From an uncultured Clostridia bacterium (GTDB lineage: Bacteria; Bacillota; Clostridia; Christensenellales; Borkfalkiaceae), in assembly GCA_949283125.1 (NCBI GenBank), contig CASDRK010000011.1:23363-87362 (forward strand): 64,000 nucleotides of DNA, given 5' to 3'. Each line of letters opens with the position of its first letter. Position 1 is the stretch's first letter. The notes beneath the pieces were generated by a model that was given only the letters and a program-made list of their open reading frames with translations, searched no databases and was not told the origin of the DNA. The translations under genes and the position numbers were made by a program. This document shows, in pieces, positions 7,364 to 21,835 of this stretch.

Positions 7364-8190
7364 TGCGTGCCGACATGCACATCCACACATATTATTCTGA
7401 CGGCACCCAGTCGCCCGCCGACGCGGTGGCCGCGGCGGTGCGCGCCGGGGTCGGGCTCATCTGCGTCACCGATCACGACACCATGGCCGGCTCCGGGGAG
7501 ACGGCCGCCCTCGCCCGCGCCGCAGGCATACGCGCCGCGGACGGGATAGAAATTTCCGCCTACGGCGAGGTGAAAGTGCACGTGCTCGGCTACGGTCTGG
7601 ACAGGGACTGCCCGCAATTCAGAAGTTACCGCGACGAAGCGGTGCAGGGCTCGTACGACCGATGCGAGGACACTCTTAAAAAATTGTCCTCGCGGGGCAT
7701 AGACGTGCCCGTGTCGGCCGTTCTCGCCGAGCGCGCCGTGCCGGACACGCCCGTGCACTCCATGTTCATCTGCCGCGCCGCGGCAAAGCTTGGCTATGCG
7801 CGCAGCGCCGGGGCGTTCTATCTTGCGTGCATAGCCGACGGCAAGTTCGCGCACTCGCGCGTGGGCAGGCTCTCGCCCGAGCGCGCGGTGGAGGTGATAA
7901 CTGCCTGCGGCGGCTGGGCGTCGCTCGCACACCCCGGGCGCATCGCTCTCGACGCCGCGCAAAAGGAGGAGCTCGTCGCGCGGCTGGTCTCCCGCGGGCT
8001 GCGCGGCATAGAGGCCGTGTATTCCGCGCATACTGAAGGCGAGACGTTATACTACAAGGAGATGGCGCGCAGATATGGTCTGCTGATCACGGGCGGGTCG
8101 GACACGCACTCCGCGGACGCGCCGCGCAGTGTGGGCACGCCCGAATTTTATCCGGACGAAGAACTTCTCCGCGCATTGCAAACAGATTGA
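7360..8190 (+). CDS. PHP-domain metal-dependent phosphoesterase
   Basis: 276 aa. Starts ADMHIHTYYSDG and contains ..ICVTDHDT.. and ..SLAHPGR.. and ..TGGSDTHS.., the PHP His/Asp motifs. Its start overlaps the recF stop (ATGA). Confidence 0.8.
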   Translation: MMRADMHIHTYYSDGTQSPADAVAAAVRAGVGLICVTDHDTMAGSGETAALARAAGIRAADGIEISAYGEVKVHVLGYGLDRDCPQFRSYRDEAVQGSYDRCEDTLKKLSSRGIDVPVSAVLAERAVPDTPVHSMFICRAAAKLGYARSAGAFYLACIADGKFAHSRVGRLSPERAVEVITACGGWASLAHPGRIALDAAQKEELVARLVSRGLRGIEAVYSAHTEGETLYYKEMARRYGLLITGGSDTHSADAPRSVGTPEFYPDEELLRALQTD

Positions 8191-9497
8191 AAAGAAGCAT
8201 CAAAGCGCTTGCGGTACTCGTGCTCGCCGTGGGCGCTTTTTTCATATCGGGAGCATGGCTTTCGGGACTGCCGCGCGGCACTACGGTGGCCGGCGCGGAC
8301 GTGGGCGGAATGTCGCGCGCGGCGGCCGTCGCCGCCGCGCGCGTGCGCATACGCGAGAGACTTAAGGACAAAGAGCTGGTGATATGCGCCGGCGAACACA
8401 CCTATCGCTTCACGTATCCCGAATTTGATTTCACTGACGACCTGCCCGAGCTCGTCGCCTCCATACGCAGGCGCGGGGCATACTCTCCGCGCGTCTGCGT
8501 CAGGCTGAACGGCGCGCGGCGCATTGCCGAAAACATCTGCTCGCGGCTCGACCGCGCGTTGCGCGAACCCTGCGCCCGCTTTTTTAGGCAGGGTCTGCCG
8601 TTTGCGTACGACGAGGGCTGCGACGGGGCGCAAGGCGACCGCGCCGCGCTGCTGGCCGATATCCGCCGCTCGCTCAACGGCGACTTTAGCGCGGTGAAAG
8701 TCCGCGTCCGTCCGCTCGCGCGGAAAAAGTCGATCGGCGACGTAAAACGTGAAACGTCGCTGCTGTGTTCGTTCACCACCTATTTCGATGCGGACAACGC
8801 TCCGCGCGCGGCAAACATAGCGCTGGCCGCGTCAAAGCTGAACGGCAGCGTGCTGGAGCCCGGGCAGACCTTTTCCTTCAACGGCGCGGTCGGGCCGCGC
8901 ACCGAGGAGCGCGGCTTCGTCTCCGCAAAGATAATTTCGGGAGGGCGATTTACGGACGGCGTGGGCGGAGGGGTCTGTCAGGTCTCTACCACGCTCTACA
9001 ACGCCGCCCTGCTGTCGGGGCTGAAGATAGAGGAGTATCACCCCCATTCGCTCAGGGTGGGGTATGTGGCGCCCTCGCGCGACGCGATGGTCAGCGGAAC
9101 GAGCTGCGATCTCAAGTTTGCAAATTGCGGCCGTCTGCCCGTATATATCCGCGCCGAAGTCTGCGGCGGGGCCGTCACGTGCCGCATTTACGGCCTGCCG
9201 GACGGGGTGGAGAGGTCGTTCTTATCGCGCGTTACAGGCTCGCTGCCCCGCCCCGCCGACGTGGTGGAGGAGGGCGAGGAAGCCCTGCTTTCGCCGGGGT
9301 GCGAGGGTACTGTCAGCGAGGGCTATTTAGTGGAGGTCAAAGGCGGGGTGCGGCGCGAAAGGCTGGTGCGCAGGGACAGGTATGCCGGCGTCCCCGCCGT
9401 GCGGCGCGCGCCGCGCGGCGGGGACGCGCCGGCGGAAGACGGACAGTCCGGGCAAAAATCCCCTGGCGCCGCCGCCAAAAGTCAAGTAATTTTATAG
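8187..9497 (+). CDS. VanW-family protein (N-terminal membrane anchor); 3' end remodelled by the element insertion
   Basis: 436 aa. VanW-like core ..FSFNGAVGPRTEERGF...GGGVCQVSTTLYNAALLSGL.IEEYHPHS... TTG start overlaps the upstream stop. The last 7 codons come from the inserted element. Confidence 0.85.
   Translation: MKRSIKALAVLVLAVGAFFISGAWLSGLPRGTTVAGADVGGMSRAAAVAAARVRIRERLKDKELVICAGEHTYRFTYPEFDFTDDLPELVASIRRRGAYSPRVCVRLNGARRIAENICSRLDRALREPCARFFRQGLPFAYDEGCDGAQGDRAALLADIRRSLNGDFSAVKVRVRPLARKKSIGDVKRETSLLCSFTTYFDADNAPRAANIALAASKLNGSVLEPGQTFSFNGAVGPRTEERGFVSAKIISGGRFTDGVGGGVCQVSTTLYNAALLSGLKIEEYHPHSLRVGYVAPSRDAMVSGTSCDLKFANCGRLPVYIRAEVCGGAVTCRIYGLPDGVERSFLSRVTGSLPRPADVVEEGEEALLSPGCEGTVSEGYLVEVKGGVRRERLVRRDRYAGVPAVRRAPRGGDAPAEDGQSGQKSPGAAAKSQVIL
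9460..9477. repeat. Left copy of the 18-bp direct repeat CCCCTGGCGCCGCCGCCA (attL-like)
   Basis: Identical 18-mer at 21770-21787. It sits exactly at the GC-content break. Confidence 0.8.
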
Positions 9498-9578
9498 AAT
9501 TTTTTTAGAAATTCAAAAAAAATTTTTAGCTTGCGTTATAATCGGTATTGTATAAGTCTTTCGGGAAAGACTTATTAA

Positions 9579-9617
9579 CAAAAACGGGTACGACCTTACA
9601 GGGCATACCCGTTTTTA
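9579..9617. terminator. Bidirectional rho-independent terminator (AAAAACGGGTA...TACCCGTTTTT)
   Basis: 7-bp stem ACGGGTA/TACCCGT with an A-run upstream and a T-run downstream. It lies between vanW and the transposase gene. Confidence 0.55.
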
Positions 9618-9626
9618 TTACACGAC

Positions 9627-9648
9627 AAAAAGCCGCGCTTTGGCGGCT
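9627..9648 (-). terminator. Rho-independent terminator downstream of the transposase gene
   Basis: The minus strand reads AGCCGC-caaagc-GCGGCT followed by TTTTTG. Confidence 0.55.
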
Positions 9649-9658
9649 GTAAACATTT

Positions 9659-9676
9659 TTGAAAGTACACTTTCAA
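9659..9676. repeat. 18-bp palindrome TTGAAAGTACACTTTCAA, copy 1 of 3
   Basis: Perfect 8+8 inverted repeat with a 2-nt centre. The same motif recurs at 12809-12826 and 14678-14695. Confidence 0.9.
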
Positions 9677-9686
9677 AAAACTACTA

Positions 9687-10784
9687 TTAAAGAGAAGCAA
9701 CGGCAGTTGCGAACATTTCCGCAGAAGTGCCGAAGCCGAATATTTCACGAGGGTAAGCATTTACCCACCGCGCGACTTCCTGCACGCGCTTTTCGCTTAC
9801 CTTTGAAAAGTCCGTGCCTTTCGGGAGCAACCGCCTAATATCGCGGTTGATACGCTCGTTAGAGCCACGCTCGCACGAAGTGTACGGGTGACAGTAATAA
9901 ACCGCCGTACGTCTGCCGCTGTAAACGGAGCGTTCCAGCCCTGCGAAGTCCGAGAACTCCGAGCCGTTATCAACGGTAATGCTTTTGAACAGCGTACGAA
10001 ACTTTTTACCGTAACGCCGTTCGAGTTTATCAAGGTACTGCACGACCGTTGCCGCCTTTCGGTTCGGCATTTTCATGATAATTTCGTAGCGCGTCGCCCG
10101 CTCGGTCAACACCAAAAGCACGTTGCGGGTGTACTGCCGCCCGACAACGCAGTCCATTTCCCAATGCCCGAAATTACGGCGCAGGAGAATGTCGGCGGGA
10201 CGGCGTTCAATACTCGTACCCTTCGGCGGGCGTTTCGCCTGCGTTTTCTTGTAATGCTTTTTACGCTGTCCCACGGGCAAATGCTCGGAGCGGATATTCA
10301 TAAACAGCCCCTGCGCAATATAGCGGTACATTGTCGTTTTACTCACAACCGTTTTGCAGAGATTATCGCGCTTGATTTCACCCGCGACAGCGGCAGGGGA
10401 AATTTTATCAACGCAGACCCGCTTTTCAACGTAGCGTATAAAATCGTAGTCGTTGCCAACCTTTAAGGGCGCACCGTGTGCCGTTTTATTCAGCTGATAC
10501 TTTTCTTCCGCAACGTTCGAGCTGTAACCTTTTACAAACTTGTAATGCCGTTCGCCCCAATAGTCGGTATAACTGTACCGCTTGTATGTATATTCGCCGC
10601 GCTTCAATTCGTTATACACGGTCGCAAGGCATATGCCAAGCTGTTTTGCTATCTGTCGTTTGCTCAACCCTGCATTGTACAAAGCTTCCAACTGCAAACG
10701 CATATTCCAATCCACATTCTTCGTACCTTTGTTTTTCATTTCCGTTTGTTCCGTCCTTTTTTCCGTAGTGTCCGTAGTTTCCAT
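9687..10784 (-). CDS. IS30-family DDE transposase
   Basis: 365 aa. N-terminal HTH (..GLSKRQIAKQLGICLATVYNELKRG..) and the DDE triad context HWEMDCV ... ITVDNGSEF ... ERGSNERINRDIRR typical of IS30 transposases. Confidence 0.9.
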   Translation of the reverse strand: METTDTTEKRTEQTEMKNKGTKNVDWNMRLQLEALYNAGLSKRQIAKQLGICLATVYNELKRGEYTYKRYSYTDYWGERHYKFVKGYSSNVAEEKYQLNKTAHGAPLKVGNDYDFIRYVEKRVCVDKISPAAVAGEIKRDNLCKTVVSKTTMYRYIAQGLFMNIRSEHLPVGQRKKHYKKTQAKRPPKGTSIERRPADILLRRNFGHWEMDCVVGRQYTRNVLLVLTERATRYEIIMKMPNRKAATVVQYLDKLERRYGKKFRTLFKSITVDNGSEFSDFAGLERSVYSGRRTAVYYCHPYTSCERGSNERINRDIRRLLPKGTDFSKVSEKRVQEVARWVNAYPREIFGFGTSAEMFATAVASL

Positions 10785-10847
10785 AGTGTCCGATATGATA
10801 TTATACGCCGAAAAACGCCGCTAAAAACGCTTAAAATCGGCGTAGAG

Positions 10848-10917
10848 AGCACAACGCGCCACCTTGTTATAGACGAGCGGCGGCTTGCGCCGCCGTAACA
10901 AGGTGGCGCGTTGTGCT
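10848..10917. repeat. Nested perfect hairpin: 22-bp stem enclosing a 7-bp GC stem
   Basis: AGCACAACGCGCCACCTTGTTA (10848-10869) is the exact reverse complement of 10896-10917. The loop contains CGGCGGC-ttgc-GCCGCCG. Confidence 0.9.
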
Positions 10918-11114
10918 TGACCTGTTTTACCTGCCGTACGGGGCGATTTTTCGTGCCAACGGGGGCGCGGACAGGTCTCGCGCCCCCGTTTTATCGTCTT
11001 GCAAATGAACATTGCCGCATAAATGCGGCAAAAAAACACCCTGCGGGACATGCCGAAAAGCGCCGTATGTCAAGCCACAGGCGCAATAAAATGAACGATT
11101 GAGTTTTTACGCAA

Positions 11115-12245
11115 TCACGCAACCGACAAGGGGTTGCAGAGTAAGTCGGTAATCGACATTTGCTTGCTAAATCGGTGTCGCAGAATATCCCGCTCCCAAT
11201 TCACAACGTCGTCAAAGACAACGTATTTAAGCACAAAGTCGTTTGTCATCTCGGTTATAATGTCGTTTGCCGACAACTTCATGCAAATTTCCGTGGGTAT
11301 GCCACGGCTATAAACTATTCGTTCATTTGTCTTGCCTATGTATTTCAATATATAGTCCACGCTGTCGCCCGCTTCAAGTTGCGACTGCGTTATCTCCTCA
11401 AAATCGTTGCGCCCGTACCATTGCGCAAAGAAACTGTTTTCGTTCCTCGTCTGCATTTGCCCCTGCGCCGTGCTGTAATCGGTCTTTTCTTCGCACCTGC
11501 CGAGCATTTCACCCGCAGGGACATATAACAGACCGTGGAAGTGCAAACGCCCTGTTTCGGGCGCACGCTCGAATACCCCCATATACCGCCAGCCACGGCG
11601 GGTGTGGAGGTTTGAAAGGCAACGGCGCAATTTGCGCCTAAATGTTTCCTCGTCGTGCTTTTTATCGTCGTATGTAAAGGTTACGAAAAAATTCCAACGA
11701 TTGAGGTATGCCTTGCGGCGGAAACGCTTTTTGCGGTGGTGCAGATTGTTCAGCTTGCGCTTTACGCGCTCCGCAATATCCACCTTTGCGATCTCCTCTT
11801 CGGTAAACAGAGTGCGCAAGCCGTCATGGATATAGTCCGACATGGGCTTTTCCTTTTTCCTGTCGCGCAAGCCCTTATTATAGCCCTGCGTGAACAAATC
11901 GTCAAAGAGAATGTCAAAGACGGAGCGAGTGCCGCCAAAACCTTTATTCGACGATATATCAATGCGCATAGCGGCGGTGCGCTTGCCGCGCTCGTAGTCC
12001 CTGCGCTTATCGCGCATAAAGCGGTCATAAACGATTTCCTTTTGTTCGTCCGTAAGCTGTTTAGGACGTCTGCGGCGGTTAGATTTGCGGGCAGGCTTTA
12101 CCGCAGGGGCTTGCGCATGGCGGCAGGGCGTGGCTATCAGATGACGACCGTCATTATAGATTTTATAGGTTTTCGGCGTGTCGTCGAAAAAGGGAAATGG
12201 ACAACCCTGTAAGTCGTCCGATTGAATAAGATTTGCAACACCCAT
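11115..12245 (-). CDS. HUH-superfamily rolling-circle replication initiator (Rep)
   Basis: 376 aa. The three RCR motifs appear in order: FFVTFTYD (motif 1), RLHFHGLLYV (HUH, motif 2) and VDYILKYIGK (catalytic Tyr, motif 3). SD GAGGTGG upstream. Confidence 0.75.
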   Translation of the reverse strand: MGVANLIQSDDLQGCPFPFFDDTPKTYKIYNDGRHLIATPCRHAQAPAVKPARKSNRRRRPKQLTDEQKEIVYDRFMRDKRRDYERGKRTAAMRIDISSNKGFGGTRSVFDILFDDLFTQGYNKGLRDRKKEKPMSDYIHDGLRTLFTEEEIAKVDIAERVKRKLNNLHHRKKRFRRKAYLNRWNFFVTFTYDDKKHDEETFRRKLRRCLSNLHTRRGWRYMGVFERAPETGRLHFHGLLYVPAGEMLGRCEEKTDYSTAQGQMQTRNENSFFAQWYGRNDFEEITQSQLEAGDSVDYILKYIGKTNERIVYSRGIPTEICMKLSANDIITEMTNDFVLKYVVFDDVVNWERDILRHRFSKQMSITDLLCNPLSVA

Positions 12246-12327
12246 TTTACCACCTCAAAAATCAAATTTAATAAACACCGCCATGTGGAATAGCACCCCT
12301 GCGGGGAAATGTTATTAAGAAAAATAA

Positions 12328-12594
12328 TTATTTGCCTTGCCGCGCCCTACGTTCTGCCGCACAATCGCGCATAGCGCACATAAAGCCCTTTGCATATTGC
12401 ACACTGTTGCGCGCAGATTTACCCGACTGCGCAAGTCGCTTATTGTCGTCTATATCGCTCATCATCTCACGCTTACGCTTTTTGCTTGCCTTCGGGTACT
12501 CGCGGTACGCCTTAACACCGAAGCGGTAGCCATATGCAAATGGCGTTTTCTGTTCGCTGTTATATTTCAGTTTTTCATCTACCGAACGCTTCAT
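12328..12594 (-). CDS. Small basic hypothetical protein (88 aa)
   Basis: ORF translationally coupled (ATGA) to the upstream ORF. Lys/Arg-rich, with an N-terminal Y-x-S-E-Q-K..F-A-Y-G motif shared with two other element proteins. Confidence 0.5.
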   Translation of the reverse strand: MKRSVDEKLKYNSEQKTPFAYGYRFGVKAYREYPKASKKRKREMMSDIDDNKRLAQSGKSARNSVQYAKGFMCAMRDCAAERRARQGK

Positions 12595-12794
12595 ACCGCC
12601 ATAATCTCCCGTGCAACTTCTACGACCTCATCACCGCGAAGAGTAACACGGTAACGGTAGCCGCGAACCTTTACGCTGTGCGCCGTGTTGCCGTTATCAA
12701 GCGGAACGGAGCGCACAAGTTCTATATAGCGCCGCTGTGTCTGCACAGCACGCGCAAGCGTGCTTAAAAGGTGAAGGTATTGATATTGTGTCAT
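12591..12794 (-). CDS. Small hypothetical protein (67 aa from the internal ATG with SD AAAGGGGG)
   Basis: The ORF track gives 12591..12845. I prefer the ATG at 12794 because the 18-bp palindrome and the SD lie immediately upstream of it. Confidence 0.45.
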   Translation of the reverse strand: MTQYQYLHLLSTLARAVQTQRRYIELVRSVPLDNGNTAHSVKVRGYRYRVTLRGDEVVEVAREIMAV

Positions 12795-12808
12795 ATGTAA
12801 CCCCCTTT

Positions 12809-12826
12809 TTGAAAGTGTACTTTCAA
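12809..12826. repeat. 18-bp palindrome TTGAAAGTGTACTTTCAA, copy 2 of 3
   Basis: On the minus strand it is directly followed by AAAAGGGGGTTACATATG, the SD and start of the 67-aa ORF. Confidence 0.9.
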
Positions 12827-12833
12827 TTTTGAA

Positions 12834-12853
12834 TTGCAAAATCAATTTTGCAA
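12834..12853. promoter_or_regulatory. Second operator-like palindrome TTGCAAAAT-ca-ATTTTGCAA
   Basis: Perfect 9-bp arms. It lies between the 18-bp palindrome and a plus-strand consensus promoter. Confidence 0.6.
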
Positions 12854-12868
12854 ATAACCGAAAAATTG

Positions 12869-12897
12869 TTGACTTTATAGCCGCAAATACATATAAT
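12869..12897 (+). promoter_or_regulatory. Near-consensus sigma-A promoter TTGACT - 17 nt - TATAAT
   Basis: -35 at 12869-12874 and -10 at 12892-12897. It points away from all element ORFs, towards a terminator about 105 nt downstream. Confidence 0.55.
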
Positions 12898-12903
12898 ATC
12901 TAA

Positions 12904-13027
12904 CAGTGGTGAACGCTTCAAAGAACATTGAGGTACACCAAAGCACTGTATAATAAGTGATAGTAACTGCAAAACGGTCTATATGAAAAACAGTGGACAC
13001 AGCGGCAAAAGCCGCTGTTATTTTTTT
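12904..13027 (+). ncRNA. Candidate ~120-nt small RNA (promoter-to-terminator unit, no convincing ORF)
   Basis: Bounded by the consensus promoter and an intrinsic terminator. AACAGTGG occurs at both 12902-12909 and 12989-12996. The 3' end overlaps the stop region of the convergent 156-aa gene. Confidence 0.4.
12999..13027 (+). terminator. Rho-independent terminator ACAGCGGC-aaaa-GCCGCTGT plus TATTTTTTT
   Basis: 8-bp GC-rich stem followed by a T-run on the plus strand. Confidence 0.7.
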
Positions 13028-13488
13028 CTTAAAATATATTTAATTTTTGCCATATCATTATTAGACAAATGGGCAACATTAGTAATATATCTATCTACTT
13101 CATAAATTTCGGAACGGTCAATCCACGTACGCTTATTACTGATTTGCCGTTCATAATCATTATCAAGAATAATAGTCTTTGTAGTCCGCTTTTCAACGGG
13201 TGCAACAAGCACACGACCCTTTTTATCGGTATCAATAACGGCACAAACGCGAGGTTTAGAAATAGCGTTACCAAAATGATTATCATTTGTCATAATTAAA
13301 TCAGGGTCGTTAAATGAACGATTTTTAAGGCTATTTAAATATTCCAACCTACTTTCGGCATACTCTCTTCTACTTGCCGTCAAAACTTTACCGTCAGAAG
13401 TTTTACCCGTTTTAAGTATATTATTATAATGCTTAATCTTTTCATTAACTGAATAATAAACATAATTGGTCTTACCGTGTTTAAACAT
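13018..13488 (-). CDS. AT-rich cargo protein (156 aa); C-terminal ~95 aa resemble the MazF/PemK toxin fold by eye
   Basis: SD TGAGGTGG. ..DLIMTNDNHFGNAISKPRVCAVIDTDKKGRVLVAPV...WIDRSEIYEVDRYITNVAHLSNNDMAKIKYIL parallels EndoA/MazF ..GDVYFADL..GVRPVLVIQND...IVAAIT...ILLEQIRTIDKQRL.DKIGHLDDEMMDKVDEAL (from memory). It has the lowest GC in the element. Confidence 0.55.
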   Translation of the reverse strand: MFKHGKTNYVYYSVNEKIKHYNNILKTGKTSDGKVLTASRREYAESRLEYLNSLKNRSFNDPDLIMTNDNHFGNAISKPRVCAVIDTDKKGRVLVAPVEKRTTKTIILDNDYERQISNKRTWIDRSEIYEVDRYITNVAHLSNNDMAKIKYILRKK

Positions 13489-13605
13489 ATAACCACCTCA
13501 TTATTCTAATTTTAATGCCTGTCGGAGCTTTACCGCCCCGACAGGCTTTTATATATCACCCCTGCGGGGAGTAATACCCGTTCGGGAATGACCGTTAAAG
13601 AAAGA

Positions 13606-13851
13606 CTACTGCCCGTCTTTGGCGTTTTGTTTTGCCTTTAATTTTTCCCTTTTGCGCACCGCCCGTTGATACCGCTTGTCCTCGCGGTCAAGCCTGCGGA
13701 ACTGCCGTTTCATATTCTTGAATATGTACGCCAAAATCTTTTTGTTGTACTTTTCAGGCACAAAATCGGCGGTGTCGAGCGTTTGCGCAAAAGTGGCATA
13801 ATACGTTTCAAGGCAGGTGTTAATCAGCTTGTTTTTGTTGTAATTTATCAT
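13606..13851 (-). CDS. Small hypothetical protein (81 aa) with a basic C-terminus
   Basis: ORF start overlaps the stop of the Zot-like gene (ATGA coupling). Confidence 0.5.
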   Translation of the reverse strand: MINYNKNKLINTCLETYYATFAQTLDTADFVPEKYNKKILAYIFKNMKRQFRRLDREDKRYQRAVRKREKLKAKQNAKDGQ

Positions 13852-14666
13852 GCCGCTTTACCTCGCGTATAAAAGCCGTCGGGTAGTTCGTCGTCCATAG
13901 TCTGCAAATACCTTACATAGCCGTCTATCGTGCAGTCGTTCGGTTCGGCTTGCATATAATCGTAATCGCTGTGCAGATGACCGTCGTAAAACTTCGGCTT
14001 GCAATTTTGGCTGTCGTAACAGGCAAACACGTTGTAATCGGCTTTGACGACCTCTTCCGTGTAGCATTCCTTGTCCTTTTTGCCGCTCTGCATATAGCGG
14101 TCAAAAAGACTACTGTTATCTATGCGGCGTATCAGCCATTTAAGAGCTTTAACGCGCCCGTAGCCGTCGTATTTGAATTGCAGGTTTACAATCTCAATGA
14201 ACTGCGCAAGCTCGCGCACGTTCACGTCTATGAGCATAGGACGTTGAGTATCGAGAAACACGTCTAAATCTAAATGCCCGTGTTGCTCGTACCAACGCGA
14301 TTGCCAATCGGGAAAATAGCGCGACATACGGCTGTTAAGATATTTTTGCGCTTCGGTTATACAGATACACTCGTGCGGCAAATTGAAATGCGTTTTTACA
14401 AAATCGTTTGCATAACCTAAACGGTAGGGATTTATGCGGCGGGAAAGTCGAGGACTATACCCGAATTTGTGCATTACAATATCGTAATTTGCCGATACGC
14501 AATGCATGGGCACGGTCTGTATGCCGTCAAAGCCCTGTTGCATTTTCGCCAATATTTCCCGCCGCATAGCGGTATTCCGTTGTTTGTCAAACGCCGCCAT
14601 GCTTGCTATATGCGTTAAAAAACAGGTCTTGCCCGTTCGCGGCGGGGCAAATATTATCGTTATCAT
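13848..14666 (-). CDS. Zot-like (inovirus pI-type) P-loop NTPase without a transmembrane segment
   Basis: 272 aa. Walker A FAPPRTGKT and Walker B-like ICITEAQKY, then ..EQHGHLDLDVFLDTQRPMLIDVNVRELAQ.., which mirrors the Zot-family HRH.G.D(I/V)..(I/L)TQ...(I/L)D core. Confidence 0.7.
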   Translation of the reverse strand: MITIIFAPPRTGKTCFLTHIASMAAFDKQRNTAMRREILAKMQQGFDGIQTVPMHCVSANYDIVMHKFGYSPRLSRRINPYRLGYANDFVKTHFNLPHECICITEAQKYLNSRMSRYFPDWQSRWYEQHGHLDLDVFLDTQRPMLIDVNVRELAQFIEIVNLQFKYDGYGRVKALKWLIRRIDNSSLFDRYMQSGKKDKECYTEEVVKADYNVFACYDSQNCKPKFYDGHLHSDYDYMQAEPNDCTIDGYVRYLQTMDDELPDGFYTRGKAA

Positions 14667-14677
14667 AAACCGCCTTT

Positions 14678-14695
14678 TTGAAAGTGCACTTTCAA
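14678..14695. repeat. 18-bp palindrome TTGAAAGTGCACTTTCAA, copy 3 of 3
   Basis: On the minus strand it is directly followed by AAAAGGCGGTTTATG, the SD and start of the Zot-like gene. It abuts the stop of the 707-aa gene. Confidence 0.9.
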
Positions 14696-14696
14696 T

Positions 14697-16820
14697 TTAT
14701 CCGCCCGCAATGAGCGAATAGCACCAGCCCGCAAACGTGTTTATAAAGAACACGTCAAGGACTATCGTCAAGGCGAGGAACAAAAGCATTATCCACCAAG
14801 GCAGACCGCAAGCGGTACACAGCACAAGGCGAAGGAGCAACAGCACAACTATTTCCGCAAGCACAACAATCACATACGCCCACCAAGGAATATCGCTATC
14901 AATATCGACGGACGGGGTGATTGCATTGACAATGTCAATGGGCGAAGATACGGCGGGGATAACGTAATATTTGCCGTCGTCATTAAATGTCAGCTGTATC
15001 ACGTCAAAGTCCAAAAATACGCTCTCCCAAGCGCGGTAGGCTTGCCCGCTTATTTTGGTATCTCCGCCTAAAAAGCCTGTGCCAAGTTCCCAAATCTCAA
15101 CGGGAGCAGAATAGTAGTCAGTTGTTGCGAAGTGGAACAGCACGACAACTTTTTCTTCGTCGTCGGGTATGGACGTATCAACGGTAATTGCTTCGTCGTA
15201 ATAATCGCGCAGAGCCTGTACATCACCCGAATTTATCAAGAGCCGTTCGCTCACCTCTGCCGAAGTGCCTTTCAAATCGTCCTCTTCAATTATCTCAATG
15301 GGCGCGACCGTGCGGCTCTCTTCTTCGGGAATATCGCCAAAAATAGTGTCCCAAAGTCCCCAATTCCGCAAATTGTCCCAAAAGTCGGGGGCAGTTTCCT
15401 GCCAGCTCGAAAGGTGTTGCAAGTCTAAATCTGCGTCGAAATCGTAATAGCTGTAACCTTGCTGTATCTTGCCGTATTTGCTGTCAACCTTGCGGTAATC
15501 GTCTATGTCGGCGGCGAACAAATCAGCGCTGATAGTGCCGTCTTTAATAGGGAGCGCACCGCCGTCATAACTTTTATCATAGTTTTTTATGTACTCGTAC
15601 AGTTGATTGCTCTCAACACCGCCAATGCTGACGATATCGGCGTATGGATCGTATTCCGCGATATTATCTACCTGAAAAAGATAATATAAAGCATTTGCGC
15701 GAGGGGAAAGATAAGTATGATAAATATTCCACCCCCATGTTGCACCTTGAATACCAACACCCATACCGCTTGAATAAAAATCTTGAATAAGAGAATATCC
15801 AATATCTTTATTAATTTCAGGAACGCCCAAAGAACTTAATTGAGTATTAGTCTGTTCACCAAGCCAAGACTTTGCCGCAGAAAAAAACTTATCGTTGCTC
15901 GTTACGATTATATCTTTGGTCTTGTATTCGTACCATTCGGCTTTAATGCGTTGCAGTTCGCCGTAGGTATCGAACAGGCGTTTCGGCACAGCAAAATACA
16001 CACTATCAAGCTGATTTTGATAACCTGCGCCCTTGCTCGAAGTTTCGGAGCGGTAAAAGGTATGTCTTACGTCAAGTTCCACGGCTTCGGCTTGTCCCGT
16101 GCTCAAACAGGTAAACGGAAATTTTTCACTGTCGCCGTAGCCCTCGGCATAGCCGCTGAACTGATAATACTTGTTCACAAGGTATTCATGCGCGTTTGTC
16201 GCACTTCCACCTATCTCGAACAACTCAATGCCCGATATGTGGTAATATCTGTTGCCCGTCTTTTGCTCGTGCTCGCGCTCGGCATTGAGTATGATATTTT
16301 CTTCGTCCACAATGCGGAATTTCAAGAAGAGATTTGCATACTCGCCGCCGCTTGAATTGCAAAATTTAAGACTGAATTTTTGGTAGTCCTTGACGTCACC
16401 CACATTGCCTTGTTCGTTATCGTAATAAAAATCAGTGGAAATCTGAATTTTATTTTGTTTCAAAAATACGGCATAATCCAAAAGAGCAGGATTATACACA
16501 TAAACGTACAGCGCATAATTGCCGAAGCCGTTTTCATACTGCGAATAACAATACTCAACAAAAGTTATCATTCGTGTAGTTCCGTGCGCGTTCTTTGGAT
16601 AATCAGCTATATCAAACGGCTCGCCGTCTATGGTGGAGCTTTGCAAATCGTCAAGGGCGTTGGTGTCGTCATACTTCAATTCTTTGCCAGTGTCGGCATA
16701 AACATAGGGGTCGGAAACTTGTCCGCAAATTATACTCGACAATAAACATAAGATGACAATTATATACGGCAAGAACGTTCGCATTTTTGCTTTAAACTTT
16801 TTCATTAAAATTGCACGCAT
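14697..16820 (-). CDS. Large secreted protein with C-terminal multi-helix membrane anchor (candidate adsorption/minor virion protein)
   Basis: 707 aa. N-terminal signal-like segment (..FLPYIIVILCLLSSIICGQ..) and a C-terminal ~65 aa hydrophobic region (..WWAYVIVVLAEIVVLLLL...WWIMLLFLALTIVLDVFFI..). SD AAGGTGAGG. It sits just upstream of the Zot-like gene, as gIII/gVI do in inoviruses. Confidence 0.6.
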   Translation of the reverse strand: MRAILMKKFKAKMRTFLPYIIVILCLLSSIICGQVSDPYVYADTGKELKYDDTNALDDLQSSTIDGEPFDIADYPKNAHGTTRMITFVEYCYSQYENGFGNYALYVYVYNPALLDYAVFLKQNKIQISTDFYYDNEQGNVGDVKDYQKFSLKFCNSSGGEYANLFLKFRIVDEENIILNAEREHEQKTGNRYYHISGIELFEIGGSATNAHEYLVNKYYQFSGYAEGYGDSEKFPFTCLSTGQAEAVELDVRHTFYRSETSSKGAGYQNQLDSVYFAVPKRLFDTYGELQRIKAEWYEYKTKDIIVTSNDKFFSAAKSWLGEQTNTQLSSLGVPEINKDIGYSLIQDFYSSGMGVGIQGATWGWNIYHTYLSPRANALYYLFQVDNIAEYDPYADIVSIGGVESNQLYEYIKNYDKSYDGGALPIKDGTISADLFAADIDDYRKVDSKYGKIQQGYSYYDFDADLDLQHLSSWQETAPDFWDNLRNWGLWDTIFGDIPEEESRTVAPIEIIEEDDLKGTSAEVSERLLINSGDVQALRDYYDEAITVDTSIPDDEEKVVVLFHFATTDYYSAPVEIWELGTGFLGGDTKISGQAYRAWESVFLDFDVIQLTFNDDGKYYVIPAVSSPIDIVNAITPSVDIDSDIPWWAYVIVVLAEIVVLLLLRLVLCTACGLPWWIMLLFLALTIVLDVFFINTFAGWCYSLIAGG

Positions 16821-16839
16821 AACCTCACCTTAATACTAC

Positions 16840-17421
16840 TCAAAAGAAAAGGTTAGAAGGTGTTACTGAAAAATCATAAACCATAAACCAAAGATTTACC
16901 GAGCTCTTATCAGATGTTATGGATATTCCAAAATAGCGATAACTGTCGTTTGAATTATCTACAATCTCAATATCACCGCCATATTTTTGCTCGACGAGAG
17001 TTTCAACCGAAAAATCAAACGGTATATAAAGTTCAAACCCGTCAGCATTACGCTTAATATCAAAATATTGAGTGTAATCATTCAAACTATCAACGTCACC
17101 ATAAAACCAATAAAGTTCGTCATTATATTTAAACGTAAAATCATTGGCGGGATTGGATGTGATGGTAACAGAATAATTTACATCATTCCCGATAAGCGAT
17201 TTAACAGAAAAATTACCTTTCTTACCTCTAACTAATTGAATATTGCCGTCTTCGGTATTCGAATAATAACGCTCTCCGTTATACTCAACATAAAACGTTA
17301 CACCGCTTTCGCGCAGAGCGAAATATGCTATGCCAACGGCAATACCCAAAATAACAAGCGCCACAACCAAATACAACAATATCTTTCCAAAAACACTGGC
17401 TACACCGCTACGATCGCCCAT
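16840..17421 (-). CDS. Membrane-anchored protein (193 aa), beta-rich ectodomain
   Basis: N-terminal TM ..ILLYLVVALVILGIAVGIAYFAL.. and SD GAGGTG. Confidence 0.55.
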   Translation of the reverse strand: MGDRSGVASVFGKILLYLVVALVILGIAVGIAYFALRESGVTFYVEYNGERYYSNTEDGNIQLVRGKKGNFSVKSLIGNDVNYSVTITSNPANDFTFKYNDELYWFYGDVDSLNDYTQYFDIKRNADGFELYIPFDFSVETLVEQKYGGDIEIVDNSNDSYRYFGISITSDKSSVNLWFMVYDFSVTPSNLFF

Positions 17422-17435
17422 AAATTCACCTCAAA

Positions 17436-18674
17436 TCAAAAGATTATAGTATCCTTATTCAAGCTAACGTTTGTAACAGGCACGATAAACGAAGATACAC
17501 CTGATACATCTGTCAGATATATATACTTCGTCTCCGAAAATTTCTCCGAAGTATCTTCATTAGTCACGTTAACGCTTATTTTGAAAAACGCCGTCTCCTC
17601 AAACCCTTCTACAATGCGACTATCTGTAAAAAGTTCGCGGACTTCTTCCAATACTGCTTTTTTCTGCGTAGCGCTAAGCGAAGAAATGCCGCCGACGCAA
17701 TACTTTGATACAAAATCTTCAAACGATGTGTTGAAGGTACAGATGCGGTTATAATAGGTATCATAGGTAGGGTAGGTGTTTTCATTGACAGCGCCGGTGG
17801 AGTCGATATAATTGCCGCCGGAAATCAACCAACCGTGACCATAGCTCAACTCTCTTTCATCATACCCCACGCCGTAATCGTCGCACATACTCGAGAAGTC
17901 TACTTCGTATTGCGTTGATACATTTACTGATATAGCGGGAACAATTGTGCCGGCAGAACGAAAAACCTGATAAGAAATAGAGCTATCCGCCCCCGTATCT
18001 TTAAGGACTATGTCAGAACCGTTAATAACCACATCGGTTATTTTGCAACGATAATCTATGCGGCATGTATCGGTAATGGAAGGATTATTGACGGAAGATA
18101 CCGTAAGAGTGATAGGACAACCGAAAGCCTGACTGCATGATACCGTACAAGATAAGGTATCACTTGAAGGGCTTATCTGTATAAAATCCGCTTCGGTCAC
18201 GCCGATACCTGCAAGCTCGGACGTAGCATAATCGCCGTCACCGTCATTGTACCAAGCTTCTTCCGTATAATACGGATTGCCGTCTTCATTCTCGGCGGTC
18301 TCATTCCACGAAACAGACCATACCAAATCCTTAATGGTCGCTTCTTCGGGATTGACCGTTGCCGTGACGACTTGCGCATTCTCCGCCATAGGCGATATAC
18401 CGTATTCGGCATATTTCTCCACAGGAATATTCATGCTCGTAAGCGCAATCGCGCCGCCCGGCTGACTTTCGCCTATCACCATGCTGCCCTCGTCAACAGG
18501 CTGTTTGCCTTCTGCGGACTGTTCAATCTGTTCGCCTTTGCCCCAACTGTTAAACCATGTGGCAATATCGCTGTTCGTGAACCAGCTCGAACCTACGCCA
18601 CACGCAATCACAATAGCGAGCGCAAGCACGATTGCAATAACCGCAACTATGGCGTTCTTTGTTGATTTTCTCAT
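17436..18674 (-). CDS. Membrane-anchored protein (412 aa), large ectodomain
   Basis: N-terminal TM ..AIVAVIAIVLALAIVIACGV.. and SD AAGGAG. No recognisable family. Confidence 0.6.
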   Translation of the reverse strand: MRKSTKNAIVAVIAIVLALAIVIACGVGSSWFTNSDIATWFNSWGKGEQIEQSAEGKQPVDEGSMVIGESQPGGAIALTSMNIPVEKYAEYGISPMAENAQVVTATVNPEEATIKDLVWSVSWNETAENEDGNPYYTEEAWYNDGDGDYATSELAGIGVTEADFIQISPSSDTLSCTVSCSQAFGCPITLTVSSVNNPSITDTCRIDYRCKITDVVINGSDIVLKDTGADSSISYQVFRSAGTIVPAISVNVSTQYEVDFSSMCDDYGVGYDERELSYGHGWLISGGNYIDSTGAVNENTYPTYDTYYNRICTFNTSFEDFVSKYCVGGISSLSATQKKAVLEEVRELFTDSRIVEGFEETAFFKISVNVTNEDTSEKFSETKYIYLTDVSGVSSFIVPVTNVSLNKDTIIF

Positions 18675-18696
18675 TATTGTTTATCTCCTTGAAAAT

Positions 18697-18894
18697 TTAA
18701 TATTTTTTAGCTTTTTTACAGAGTAAAGCATACTCATAATCGTGGTGTTCTTTCATTGCACGTTCAACGGCTTTTAAATCACCGCGCCGTGCCGCCGTGT
18801 CTAACTTCTGTTCACTACGCTCGTACATACCCTGCAACTTCGCCGCAGAGGTAGTACGGGCAAGCTTCTTTTGTTTTCGCGTGAACCAAATCAT
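18697..18894 (-). CDS. Small hypothetical protein (65 aa)
   Basis: ORF in the co-oriented array; charged and helical-looking. Confidence 0.4.
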   Translation of the reverse strand: MIWFTRKQKKLARTTSAAKLQGMYERSEQKLDTAARRGDLKAVERAMKEHHDYEYALLCKKAKKY

Positions 18895-18896
18895 AG

Positions 18897-19217
18897 TTAA
18901 AACTTCACCGACTTGCTACGCATAGAACGGCGAACGCCTTTATTTTCATACGAACGAATTGTATTACGAACATAGCCGCGCGCTTCGTTCTTATATAAAT
19001 CGGCAAGCGTATCGCGCGCGGACTGATAACCGTATGTAACATCAACACACCCCGAACCCATACCGCGATAACCCTTACCGTCCTTACGGCGTTTACCTGT
19101 CAACTGTACCTGATACCCACCGTATGCGCCCGAAACCCGTAATTCATTGCCCGTGCGTAAGCAATATTTTTCGTTCAGCCTATCGACTTCGGCTTGTAAA
19201 TCTCTTTTTGTAATCAT
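18897..19217 (-). CDS. Small hypothetical protein (106 aa)
   Basis: SD GAGGTG 6 nt upstream of the ATG. Confidence 0.5.
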   Translation of the reverse strand: MITKRDLQAEVDRLNEKYCLRTGNELRVSGAYGGYQVQLTGKRRKDGKGYRGMGSGCVDVTYGYQSARDTLADLYKNEARGYVRNTIRSYENKGVRRSMRSKSVKF

Positions 19218-19226
19218 AACAACACC

Positions 19227-19469
19227 TCAACATTTCAGTTTGCCGACCACAACGCCGTTCCCGTCCACGACAAGGCACATATCGCCTTTGCCGCTTGTCT
19301 TTTTCTTCCTACCTGTCGCCTTGCCGCAGACGGAGTTCACGCCGTTGCGGAAAGACTGTTTGCTTTTGCTATCGGGACAATTTACGCGCTTGCCCGCTTT
19401 TGCCGCGGCATACGCACGCCCCATATGGTACGCTTTGCGCTCTTTGGCTGAATAACTTCTCTTTGCCAT
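19227..19469 (-). CDS. Small basic hypothetical protein (80 aa from MAKRSYSAKERKAY..)
   Basis: The ORF track gives 19227..19487. The ATG at 19469 avoids overlap with the upstream ORF. It carries the Y-S-x-K-E-R-K-A-Y-x-x-G motif. Confidence 0.45.
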   Translation of the reverse strand: MAKRSYSAKERKAYHMGRAYAAAKAGKRVNCPDSKSKQSFRNGVNSVCGKATGRKKKTSGKGDMCLVVDGNGVVVGKLKC

Positions 19470-19474
19470 ATGAA

Positions 19475-19684
19475 TTAAACCTCGCAATTTTTTATTTTTT
19501 GTTTTACTTCGTCATAGCTTTCGGCTGCAAATATGCCCGTGCCTTTGCCCTTTTCGTCAAGCCCCGTTTCCACAAATGTTCCGTCTTTGTCCTCAATCAC
19601 GCCCGTTACAATTCGTACAGGTACCATACACCGTTCACGCGCCTTGTTGTTACTCCACATTGTAAGTTCCAAAAACCCTTTCAT
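19475..19684 (-). CDS. Small hypothetical protein (69 aa)
   Basis: SD GAGGTG upstream. Confidence 0.45.
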   Translation of the reverse strand: MKGFLELTMWSNNKARERCMVPVRIVTGVIEDKDGTFVETGLDEKGKGTGIFAAESYDEVKQKIKNCEV

Positions 19685-19717
19685 TTTTTACACCTCGTTT
19701 CCTTATTGTCCTTATTT

Positions 19718-19750
19718 AACACCCTTGCAGAGAGCAACACCCTTACAGGG
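19718..19750. repeat. Two 13-bp direct repeats AACACCCTT(G/A)CAG with 18-bp period
   Basis: Copies at 19718-19730 and 19736-19748, in the spacer upstream of the 69-aa ORF. Confidence 0.8.
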
Positions 19751-19830
19751 AATTTTACTGTTAAGAAATGATATATAGCCGTCTGCCCGCCTGCGGAGTT
19801 TTCCACAGACGGGTTGACGGTATCTATCTT

Positions 19831-20298
19831 TTATGCCGCCGTTTCGGGGTCTGCCTCAACGGTACGTATCTGTTTATTGACCATATTCATAAGCATAGTG
19901 AGCAGGTCGACGTCGCTTTTGCCCGTCGGCTTGACTTCGGCGTGCCATACAACGCCGTTTTCGTCTACGGTGTTGACTGTGTAAACGGTGGTATGCTGTT
20001 TCTTGCCGTTGAACTCCGTTACCTTGTCGATAATATCGAGTTCGGCGGCGGGGCTTACGTCAAAGACCAAATCGAGAGGGACATAACCGCCCTTATCCTT
20101 CGGCGAGAAATCAACAGCAATACGACGACCGCGCAATGTGCCGCAGAGCTTATACTTAAAGTAAAGTCTGCCGTCATTCGTCACGTACTGATTGCCGCGC
20201 TTATCGAGCACGGGTTCACGGCGTATTACAAAATTGCCGTTCCTCATTTCCGCTACCTGTTCCATAGTTCCGTTCGTTGCCTTCTTTTCAGTTGCCAT
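19831..20298 (-). CDS. Hypothetical protein (155 aa), beta-rich; possible ssDNA-binding role is speculative
   Basis: SD AAAGGAG. No motif recognised. Confidence 0.5.
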   Translation of the reverse strand: MATEKKATNGTMEQVAEMRNGNFVIRREPVLDKRGNQYVTNDGRLYFKYKLCGTLRGRRIAVDFSPKDKGGYVPLDLVFDVSPAAELDIIDKVTEFNGKKQHTTVYTVNTVDENGVVWHAEVKPTGKSDVDLLTMLMNMVNKQIRTVEADPETAA

Positions 20299-20501
20299 AA
20301 TTTTAATAATCTCCTTTGGCAGTCGGTTGCCAGCCGTCCGATTTTTGCCCCCTTACGGGGAGTGGTGGGGACTGCAAGACGCCACCCTTGCACGAACGCT
20401 TGCCGCGCTCCTTTGGGCTATGTCCCCATAATGGCGGGGTGCAGAGGTCACCCCGCTTTACAGGAGGAATGCCCGATTGCTCGGGCTATGGAAAGCCGTC
20501 T
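20299..20501 (-). other. 200-nt GC-rich, highly structured non-coding spacer
   Basis: Several stems, for example GCGGGGTG-cagagg-TCACCCCGC (about 20433-20456), GCCCGA-ttgc-TCGGGC (20471-20486) and CCCCCTTACGGGG (20348-20360). No plausible ORF. Confidence 0.6.
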
Positions 20502-20741
20502 TTATTCTGTCGCCGCTTCAAGATTTTCAATAGCTTCACTAAGGCTATCAAGGGCATAGTCCATATTATTTATGTTATCGCCCGCAATTTCGCCGCGTTC
20601 GCTTTCCTGTATGCCCGCGGGCATATTATCGTAATATTCCTGTTCTTCGTCGCGCAACTGCTCAATGGCAGTTTGTATATCTTGTAACTGTTCAATCAGT
20701 TTGTAAAGTTCATTACGCCGTGTTTTATTCATTTTCGCCAC
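20502..20741 (-). CDS. Small acidic coiled-coil protein (79 aa)
   Basis: SD AAAGGACGGTGG. Heptad-like ..ELYKLIEQLQDIQTAIEQLRDEEQEYYD... Confidence 0.5.
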   Translation of the reverse strand: MAKMNKTRRNELYKLIEQLQDIQTAIEQLRDEEQEYYDNMPAGIQESERGEIAGDNINNMDYALDSLSEAIENLEAATE

Positions 20742-20747
20742 CGTCCT

Positions 20748-21371
20748 TTATTCTTCCTCAACCATAGGAGCATTGCAGTCCATACACATAATGTTTACGC
20801 GCTTTGTCGCCCTGACCGATTGCCCGCATATGGGGCAAATATACTTGCGCGTGCTCGTGTTCTTCGTTATCTGACATTTCATAACGGGTAAGCGATAAAT
20901 GACCGTAGGCGGGTTTGCCGCCGCAAATTCGGCTATCATTGCCGCCGTTTCGTCCGTCAATGTCGTATGCGACCAGCCGATTTTTGCCACGCACTCAACC
21001 TTTAAGCCATGTTCTTCGGCTATCTTCTTGAATAGCTTGTTGTGGTAGTTACCCGACCGCGACGTGTCTTTCATTTCGTGAACCGTCGCAAACTGATGGC
21101 ACATTTCGTGTATCAGTGTTGCCGATATCTCACCAATAGGGCGGTGAAGCTGCTGTGCCGTCATATTCAGTTCGTGTTCGCCGTCGTCGTCGGTGTTTTC
21201 ACGCCAAACTTTGCCCTGCGACCACCAGCCATTTGTTTTATTGCGCTCGTCCGTCTGCACAGTGATTACAGGCTTTACAAGCTCCCCGCCGAACAGTTCG
21301 GCGTTTATATGGTCGTATAACTTGCCGAGATATGCGACCGTCTCAATGTACTTGTCCGTTCCGTTTAACAT
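20748..21371 (-). CDS. SprT-like zinc metalloprotease with C-terminal zinc ribbon
   Basis: 207 aa. HEMCH (HExxH) is embedded in ..ISATLIHEMCHQF.. and the C-terminus has CPICG...CMDCN. Confidence 0.7.
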   Translation of the reverse strand: MLNGTDKYIETVAYLGKLYDHINAELFGGELVKPVITVQTDERNKTNGWWSQGKVWRENTDDDGEHELNMTAQQLHRPIGEISATLIHEMCHQFATVHEMKDTSRSGNYHNKLFKKIAEEHGLKVECVAKIGWSHTTLTDETAAMIAEFAAANPPTVIYRLPVMKCQITKNTSTRKYICPICGQSVRATKRVNIMCMDCNAPMVEEE

Positions 21372-21437
21372 TGTTTCGATACCTCACTTTTGTTTATTTG
21401 CCCGTATAGCCGTTAGCACAGCTTTTAATTAAATTGC

Positions 21438-21668
21438 TTAACGACAAACTACTCTCAAATACTCTTTCGCGTCGTCAATACTCTCATGCTCGACAATGTC
21501 ATAATCAGGGGCTTGAATAGTGATAACATTATTCTCAAACCCAGATTGAACCTCAAGCAATAAATTTGCTTTAAGTAAATCTGCCGCAACTCCGAAGAAT
21601 GCAAGAATTTTACCGTTGTCGTCCACAGCTACACGCACATTTGTGTTCCTGTTAATTTTAAATTTCAT
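21438..21668 (-). CDS. Small hypothetical protein (76 aa), first ORF at the right end of the element
   Basis: SD AAAGGAG upstream. Confidence 0.45.
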   Translation of the reverse strand: MKFKINRNTNVRVAVDDNGKILAFFGVAADLLKANLLLEVQSGFENNVITIQAPDYDIVEHESIDDAKEYLRVVCR

Positions 21669-21713
21669 TTCCGTTTCTCCTTTGCGTAATGCCGCCGCCC
21701 GTATTAGAACAAT

Positions 21714-21753
21714 AAAAAAACGGTATAGAGCAGTTCCTTTACTGTTCTATACC
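21714..21753 (-). terminator. Hairpin plus T7 run on the minus strand at the right end of the element
   Basis: The minus strand reads GGTATAGAACAGT-aaagga-ACTGCTCTATACC followed by GTTTTTTT (one mismatch in a 13-bp stem). Confidence 0.5.
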
Positions 21754-21769
21754 ATTGTAAAACTATACC

Positions 21770-21787
21770 CCCCTGGCGCCGCCGCCA
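21770..21787. repeat. Right copy of the 18-bp direct repeat CCCCTGGCGCCGCCGCCA (attR-like)
   Basis: Identical to 9460-9477. Confidence 0.8.
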
Positions 21788-21806: not shown

Positions 21807-21835
21807 TTGTCTTTTGGCGTGTTATATGATATAAT
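21807..21835 (+). promoter_or_regulatory. Candidate sigma-A promoter for plsX (TTGTCT - 17 nt - TATAAT)
   Basis: -35 at 21807-21812 and -10 at 21830-21835, about 85 nt upstream of plsX. Confidence 0.5.

Follow-up and report, generated by a model that had tools for sequence, protein, structure and literature searches.

IS30-family transposases have been described from insertion sequences (IS) and from phages. In Escherichia coli, IS30 itself forms minicircles or (IS30)2 dimers, in which the inverted repeats are abutted via 2 bp and a promoter arises at the junction (PMC9333248). Spiroplasma filamentous phages are credited, in a passage of PMC6668415 that cites Krupovic and Forterre 2015, with an IS30-family transposase for integration or transposition, and the Faecalibacterium phage Lagaffe encodes an IS30-family "integrase"; the direct repeats flanking it surprised the authors who described it (PMC5883640). 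The subject here is an inovirus-like prophage of 12,295 bp (positions 9475–21769, minus strand) in a window of 64,000 nucleotides, the whole stretch of DNA that was analysed, from contig CASDRK010000011.1 of an uncultured Clostridia bacterium. The last gene of this prophage encodes an IS30-family transposase, and it is highly probable that the prophage behaves as a giant IS30-type transposon that is integrated by its own transposase.

Two further reports bear on such an element. A 15-kb element of Pumilibacteraceae MGBC157735 carries an IS30 gene at its edge and a gene annotated as "inovirus gp2 family protein", with direct repeats of 15 bp around it. It lies in the 3′ end of a gene, and virus-like particles package it. 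Its authors were unable to say how it is mobilised and put the repeats down to site-specific recombination (bioRxiv 10.64898/2026.07.08.737213). Inovirus transposases in general were left as an ambiguous class, "integration or selfish element", by Roux et al. (2019).

Ends, target duplications and joined forms

The element stands out from its surroundings by low G+C content, which falls from ~0.60 to ~0.46 between about 9.5 and 21.8 kb, and by open reading frames (ORFs) that all lie on the minus strand, 18 of them of at least 50 aa. Its limits are defined by syntenic relatives and by an empty site: contigs of two other runs (X2, X3) join 9459 to 21770 and retain a single copy of the flanking repeat. 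By its predicted gene content the region 9475–21769 is an inovirus-like (filamentous) prophage, with the small circular genome, co-oriented genes and rolling-circle Rep expected of an inovirus, and with no capsid or terminase genes. The Rep is of the G2P type (11115–12245, minus strand; PF23343, 43.4 bits against a cut-off of 27.8; phrog_3419). A Zot-like (pI-type) morphogenesis ATPase is encoded at 13848–14666 on the same strand (phrog_197, E 1.1e-8). Because its match to the Pfam Zot family (16.5 bits) falls under the cut-off of 20.3, this assignment rests on PHROGs and synteny; the synteny was the same every time among 804 Zot-like homologues. At 12,295 bp, with Rep and Zot-like ATPase, the element is no small IS of 1–1.7 kb that consists essentially of a transposase.

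A direct repeat of 18 bp, CCCCTGGCGCCGCCGCCA, occurs at 9460–9477 and 21770–21787. The repeat is real, but the earlier note on this DNA went too far in regarding all 18 bp as the duplication made on insertion. The duplication is 15 bp, CCCCTGGCGCCGCCG, at 9460–9474 on the left and 21770–21784 on the right, and the last 3 bp, through which the match extends to 9477, are an incidental agreement of the element tip (CCA) with host sequence. Apparent repeats of 16–19 bp arise because bases outside the 15-bp duplication match the opposite tip of the element.

These assignments depend on the position of the tips, which can be read from the relatives. Downstream of the transposase gene all relatives read ...AAATTCTATAAAATT(A/G)CTTGACTTTT plus two bases, followed by unrelated host DNA; this end is identical or near-identical throughout and the flanks diverge right after it. 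Most relatives have CA as these two bases; the sub-lineage to which the window belongs has GG. Since the GG tip (9475–9476) is constant at three different insertion sites (the window, L009 and L038), it is part of the element. The far end is conserved as (T/C/G)G-TA(A/T)AGTTTTA(C/T)AATGGTATAGAACAGTAA, and most relatives end 5′-TG...CA-3′.

Read on the minus strand, the window element begins 5′-GGTATAGTTTTACAATGGTATAGAAC (far-end terminal inverted repeat, 21744–21769) and ends ...TTCTATAAAATTACTTGACTTTTGG-3′ (transposase-side terminal inverted repeat, 9475–9500). Its two termini match at 14 of 26 positions when counted from 9475 (P ~0.002–0.007), and the family consensus termini, TGTAAAGTTTTACAATGGTATAGAAC and TGAAAAGTCAAGTAATTTTATAGAAT, match at 17 of 26 (P ~3.5e-5). 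In this respect the element is bounded by terminal inverted repeats of the IS30 type, which span ~20–30 bp. The absence of inverted repeats at the termini, as claimed earlier, is explained by an error of register: 9478 onward compared with 21769 backward gives 5 matches in 26. In one sub-lineage that lacks one T of the T-run, the tip moves by one base (TTTCAG). This shift suggests that the cut is placed by its distance from the binding site and not by a particular dinucleotide.

With the tips fixed, six of seven complete integrated elements display a duplication of 15 bp and the seventh one of 16 bp; all of the duplicated sequences differ. An eighth element, pieced together from the loose ends of contigs in run X3, shows a duplication of exactly 15 bp, GAAAAAATTATCGAA. 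The relatives occupy 19 distinct host insertion sites that share no core.

It might be argued that the enzyme resembles that of IS1630, and that it targets and duplicates inverted repeats such as hairpins or terminators, with long duplications of variable length. Copies of IS1630 are indeed flanked by duplications of 16–26 bp (PMC3317919), the window repeat has inverted ends, and some relatives have palindromic targets, such as TTTTCGgtCGAAAA (L077) and GCGCTcAGCGC (L041). However, the duplication does not vary once the tips are fixed, being 15 bp in seven of the eight elements and 16 bp in the other. The 19 distinct sites yield no target consensus, and in seven relatives the fold energy of 45-nt target windows equals that of the host background (mean z −0.19). 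This explanation is therefore judged unlikely. The analogy with IS1630 that had been proposed earlier holds for the long duplication but not for the targeting of inverted repeats, and the mutually inverted ends of the window repeat (TGGCG...CGCCA) are not a feature of the family.

Joined forms of the element are found among the relatives. In L021 and L022, which represent the same phage as the integrated L019, the transposase-side end runs directly into the far end, and the junction reads CTTGACTTTT-CA-TA-TG-TAAAGTTTTATAAT. A pattern search found four more abutted junctions, with the spacers TT, AA, TA and GT, so that the junctions take the form CA-NN-(T/C)G, where NN is TA, TT, AA, TA or GT. 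Ends abutted with a 2-nt spacer occur in L021/L022, L163, L167, L169, L176 and the tandem L197, and these relatives share the 2-bp spacing of joined ends that is typical of the IS30 type. One of them, L167, is a contig of 11,821 bp with a 43-nt terminal overlap; its genes are in synteny with those of the window element, and its transposase and Zot-like protein are 81% and 83% identical. Another, L197/L198 (GCA_019422805.1, JAHZCQ010000038.1; an NCBI metagenome-assembled genome, MAG), contains two tandem phage copies joined via AT. This arrangement is formally like an (IS30)2 dimer, although misassembly of circular and integrated forms is possible. The dinucleotide TA adjoins the end of integrated L019 and is also the spacer in L021, which fits a spacer copied from flanking DNA.

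These junctions bear directly on a second alternative, site-specific recombination at a shared 18-bp attachment (att) core, with the transposase as the recombinase or with a host enzyme, XerCD for instance, in that role. In its favour, a perfect 18-bp direct repeat is present; a core-like CTTGCGCCGCCG lies within a conserved hairpin upstream of the transposase gene; and IS30 transposase is described as capable of site-specific recombination in an engineered (chimeric) prophage (Kiss et al. 2003, cited in PMC5883640). Yet no two of eight elements have the same flanking-repeat sequence, although the length of the repeat is kept; the repeats are therefore target duplications rather than an att core. 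Only 2 nt, and no core, lie between the ends in circular and tandem relatives. No tRNA genes or Rfam features were found at the insertion site, the repeat is by inspection unlike a dif site, and the similarity to the hairpin is confined to G+C-rich bases and absent in relatives with other targets. The 18-bp att core was rejected because the repeats vary between elements and the junctions hold 2 nt only; recombination of this kind is very unlikely.

The observations are better accommodated by transposition. The transposase would bind both imperfect terminal inverted repeats, which in the circular replicative form would be abutted, 2 nt apart; for the window prophage the expected junction is CTTGACTTTTGG-NN-GGTATAGTTTTACAAT. 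Its cuts would fall at a set distance from where it binds, and it would join the ends to a target cut with a 15-bp stagger, and repair of the staggered cuts would give the 15-bp duplication. The choice of target would be loose.

The transposase gene and its place in the phage

The transposase gene (9687–10784, minus strand) is intact, with a longest ORF of 365 aa. It matches NF033563, the IS30 transposase model, with 228 bits against a cut-off of 80 over 266 of 267 model positions; its HTH_38 and rve domains both exceed their cut-offs, and the phage transposase family phrog_4646 is matched with E 1e-108. Since almost all of 6,620 homologues are 350 aa long, the true start is probably Met16 at 10739, which gives a protein of that length. 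In this numbering D196, D257 and E295 are invariant among 11 homologues of 43–80% identity, as is R302, seven residues past E295. The predicted protein has the hallmarks of the IS30 family, namely a match to the family model, a helix-turn-helix plus rve core, and a D,D,E triad. No related solved structures were found.

The gene is the last at the left end of the element and is co-oriented with all of the other ORFs, none of which matches any recombinase family. The G+C content of the region is ~0.50, compared with ~0.60 in the host. On each of these points, that is, an intact and co-oriented IS30-type DDE transposase at the left end, the only recombinase of the element, and an element-like composition, the description in the earlier note was borne out.

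A further alternative is that the gene belongs to an ordinary IS30-family IS, inserted into the prophage by chance and without a role in its integration. Transposases of selfish elements and domesticated viral genes are inseparable by sequence alone (Roux et al. 2019), and the program ISEscan called a "partial IS30" in a related element. No inverted repeats or 2–3 bp duplication bracket the gene itself, however; the only long inverted repeat nearby is the self-contained hairpin at 10848–10917, in agreement with the earlier failure to find flanking repeats. The 64-kb window holds no further copy of the transposase, nor anything else that resembles the gene or its ends. A discrete 1.2-kb IS with its own inverted repeats, a 2–3 bp duplication and extra copies was not found; such an IS, of 1.1–1.3 kb, was the contrary case that had been named in advance.

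The relatives argue more directly that the gene belongs to the phage. Gene order, SprT-like ... Zot-like ... Rep–transposase (last), was identical in every look-up with five proteins: three transposases (the window's own and two that are 84% and 80% identical to it) and two Zot-like proteins. The window's exact transposase protein was found only in its present context, next to a host VanW-like gene. Another, P0026, is found in identical form behind the same phage genes in at least seven different host neighbourhoods, and it also occurs once in the tandem prophage pair. Identical transposases stand behind the phage genes at many host sites, and behind Rep in every case except L196, a deletion derivative. 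All relatives conserve the gene together with the 209 bp that follow it and the element end; among the relatives fetched there were no solo IS copies of the transposase, and no relative showed an empty IS site in the interval from Rep to the end. Sister inoviruses that lack the IS30 gene (Zot-like proteins 72–88% identical) carry another integrase in its place, and the integration module is therefore exchangeable. Insertion of an unrelated IS is scarcely credible in the face of these findings, which support the view that the IS30 enzyme is the integration module of this inovirus lineage. From the conserved triad, the conserved ends and the fixed-length duplications we infer that the transposase catalyses the integration. 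The proposal that the transposase is the integrase of the element gains from its constant position in every relative fetched and from the many host sites of P0026; overall, the earlier observation is partly confirmed and its interpretation partly supported.

Integration by the rolling-circle Rep, an HUH endonuclease, instead of the transposase can be given almost no weight: Rep is always adjacent to the transposase, and the conserved hairpin, possibly its origin, adjoins it, but the integration points lie 1.4 kb and 10.9 kb from that hairpin, HUH-mediated joining is not known to give fixed-length duplications flanking inverted-repeat ends, and relatives with a homologous Rep family and no transposase carry a large serine recombinase.

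The sister inoviruses differ among themselves. In L016 (ERZ16268140 scaffold_1803), whose Zot-like protein is 88% identical, the slot behind Rep holds a different rve transposase (14330–15277; HTH_32/rve/rve_3, 315 aa) that is flanked by IS200-type Y1 transposase genes. In L025–L037 (Zot-like proteins 72–73% identical) a large serine recombinase is found at the opposite end. The neighbours of these inoviruses are varied cargo genes, which include methylases with Vsr, an aminoglycoside-resistance-like gene and a tet(M)-like EF-G, and PcfJ/PcfK genes, typical of conjugative elements. A scan of viral contigs with the window transposase returned only relatives of 43–48% identity, with no other gene in common with the element.

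Putative control signals and other features

The joined ends read TTGACT-17 nt-TATAAT, which matches the promoter consensus at 11 of 12 positions. The −35-like hexamer, TTGACT, lies in the transposase-side end (9480–9485). In the window the −10-like hexamer is TACAAT, in the far end (21754–21759), and given a 2-nt spacer the two would again be 17 nt apart. A metagenome search for abutted ends returned mostly unrelated promoters and few true junctions; the junction is therefore itself recognised as promoter-like. This putative promoter points into the phage operon, and integration separates its two hexamers; the host sequence now at the −35 position has, by eye, no resemblance to TTGACA. The junction promoter would thus drive the co-oriented phage genes in the circular state only. 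Just inside the far end, and overlapping the inner part of the inverted repeat, lies a terminator-like hairpin with a U-run (21712–21756, minus strand; RNA fold −18.5 kcal/mol, z −4.6) that is kept with altered sequence in relatives. It may block read-through from the host, and transcription driven by the joined ends would begin within its 5′ arm.

These signals permit a broader proposal, which is offered tentatively and to which we assign somewhat less than an even chance. The phage family may represent a self-replicating, infectious IS30 "minicircle", with the replicative form as the transposition intermediate. Integration would split the promoter and shut the phage operon, the terminator would stop host read-through, and junction transcripts would escape it. 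Because the phage carries its own Rep, its "minicircle" can replicate. If the proposal is correct, it describes a lysogeny switch that operates without a repressor, and the fixed 15-bp stagger implies a transposase–DNA complex shaped unlike those of other IS30 enzymes.

Several points weigh against the view that the prophage is an IS30-type transposon. IS30 elements typically duplicate 2–3 bp of target, and the 15 bp found here depart from that pattern. The inverted repeat of the window, with its 14 matches, is weak, and it has GG...GG as terminal dinucleotides in place of TG...CA. In seven elements the agreement of the tips with adjacent target bases exceeds chance (15 nt, against ~4.7 expected; P 0.001–0.03), and the exact tip positions could be off by 1–3 nt. 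Among the assembled contigs of run X1, in which prophage depth equals flank depth (~125), there is no circle or junction contig for this exact prophage, and some of the junction contigs from relatives could be tandem copies rather than circles. The promoter and the terminator are assigned their roles by resemblance. Integration of the prophage by its own transposase nevertheless remains, in our judgement, the highly probable reading stated at the outset.

The region upstream of the transposase gene (10785–10917) is noncoding and consists of a leader and the long hairpin. The 22-nt arms of this conserved 70-nt structure (10848–10917) are perfect, and it includes an inner GC hairpin and a bulge, CTCGTCTA, that is conserved; the bulge CTCGT is invariant. 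Across the family it lies 74–108 nt upstream of the transposase start. Folded as DNA it reaches −39.8 kcal/mol (z −11.2), and 7 of its 27 pairs show compensatory changes. Of 24 loci that have a close transposase, 21 contain it; all 88 Zot-bearing loci without such a transposase lack it. A role as the Rep replication origin or as a packaging signal is favoured; the hairpin could also regulate the transposase. The notion that it is the fossil junction of two inverted repeats of a mini-IS was rejected: the window contains no third copy of its arms, it is not at the integration points, and relatives in runs X2 and X3 join it to other parts of the element. In the contigs of these relatives, 14695 is joined to the hairpin (10846–10919) via 19 nt, ATAGGACACAT(G/A)TGTCATA, and in run X3 the hairpin is also joined on to 19715. 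Such joints may represent a deleted mini-element that keeps the hairpin and has lost Rep and the transposase.

Downstream of the transposase gene are a terminator-like hairpin with a T-run (9631–9648, minus strand) and a further hairpin (9576–9620). A palindrome, TTTTTGAAAGT(G/A)CACTTTCAA, occurs three times in the element, at 9656–9679, 12806–12826 and 14675–14695. The first copy lies 8 nt past the transposase stop codon and is kept in all relatives; another lies between a 707-aa gene and the Zot-like gene. The palindrome could be an operator or a weak bidirectional terminator.

Among the remaining phage genes, that for a SprT-like metalloprotease (20748–21371, minus strand) is a conserved marker of the far end. 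Three large membrane-type proteins have no family matches, and no major coat protein was identified in the element. A 156-aa ORF at 13018–13488 has a weak match to PemK/MazF-like toxins (E 0.0015, under the cut-off) and is a possible toxin–antitoxin gene inside the prophage. The contigs of the metatranscriptome runs come only from relatives at 90–95% identity; Rep and the transposase are covered less deeply in them than the structural and SprT genes.

The prophage sits in the last codons of the host VanW-like gene (8187–9497, plus strand), upstream of plsX. Reading across the empty-site joint indicates that insertion swapped the last 15 codons of the VanW-like gene for 6 codons encoded by the element. 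A promoter-like site for plsX (21807–21835; TTGTCT-17-TATAAT, with a TG upstream) is immediately beyond the insertion, which leaves it undisturbed. Among genomes, the Zot-like protein has its closest match in Candidatus Coproplasma excrementavium (92%), and related elements occur in MAGs of Christensenellales-type Clostridia. In run X2 only the terminal ~55 nt (9476–9531) and ~38 nt (21731–21768) of the element are found at a depth of 115–139, and the rest is at 5–7; this run holds a far more abundant and otherwise different element that has just these ends in common with it.

Comparison with known systems

Integration of a phage by an IS30 enzyme had been called unusual in the earlier note, but there are precedents in the Spiroplasma filamentous phages and in phage Lagaffe. 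The presence of such enzymes in these phages is already published and the kind of system is known; what is new here is a Rep-bearing Clostridia lineage with a 15-bp duplication, mapped ends, a defined spacer and a putative junction promoter. This amounts to a concrete and testable anatomy for a gut lineage that is widespread in Christensenellales and other uncultured Clostridia. This anatomy allows prophage boundaries to be called precisely, and it accounts for the direct repeats that puzzled earlier authors. The family also offers a natural system in which to ask what determines the stagger length of a DDE transposase, and in what way a regulatory device of an IS, the junction promoter, could be reused for phage control.

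The MGBC157735 element shares with the window prophage an IS30 gene at its edge, the inovirus gp2 annotation and 15-bp repeats; the only evidence for particles comes from that element. L044, the reference genome of the MGBC157735 species, contains a related inovirus that lacks this transposase, and neither the transposase nor the published 15-bp repeat is present in the genome. The transposase of Lagaffe is 45.6% identical to that of the window and belongs to the same PHROG, and its prophage too is flanked by direct repeats, but Lagaffe is a tailed phage of 48 kb.

The Spiroplasma phages (SpV1-type, Vespertiliovirus, with IS3 or IS30 transposases) are filamentous single-stranded DNA phages that carry an IS30-family transposase, and Spiroplasma records are among the phage matches to the window transposase. 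They are described as having no Rep and replicating by transposition (PMC6668415), whereas the window element encodes a G2P-type Rep. The host here is a Christensenellales-like Clostridia bacterium, and the transposases are related only distantly.

IS1630 of Mycoplasma fermentans is likewise an IS30-family element with unusually long duplications, of 16–26 bp. Its duplications vary in length and are reported as inverted repeats, in contrast to the fixed 15 bp, with no enrichment of dyads, that is seen here.

With IS30 of E. coli, a copy-out-paste-in element, the family described here has in common the transposase family, imperfect terminal inverted repeats of ~26 bp, and ends abutted via 2 bp. 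Across the joined ends, where IS30 assembles a strong promoter, the present family has a promoter-like sequence. Unlike IS30, which duplicates 2 bp, this family duplicates 15 bp, and no hot-spot consensus was found for it. It carries a complete phage of 12 kb, Rep included, and the putative promoter points into the phage operon, of which the transposase is the last gene rather than the first.

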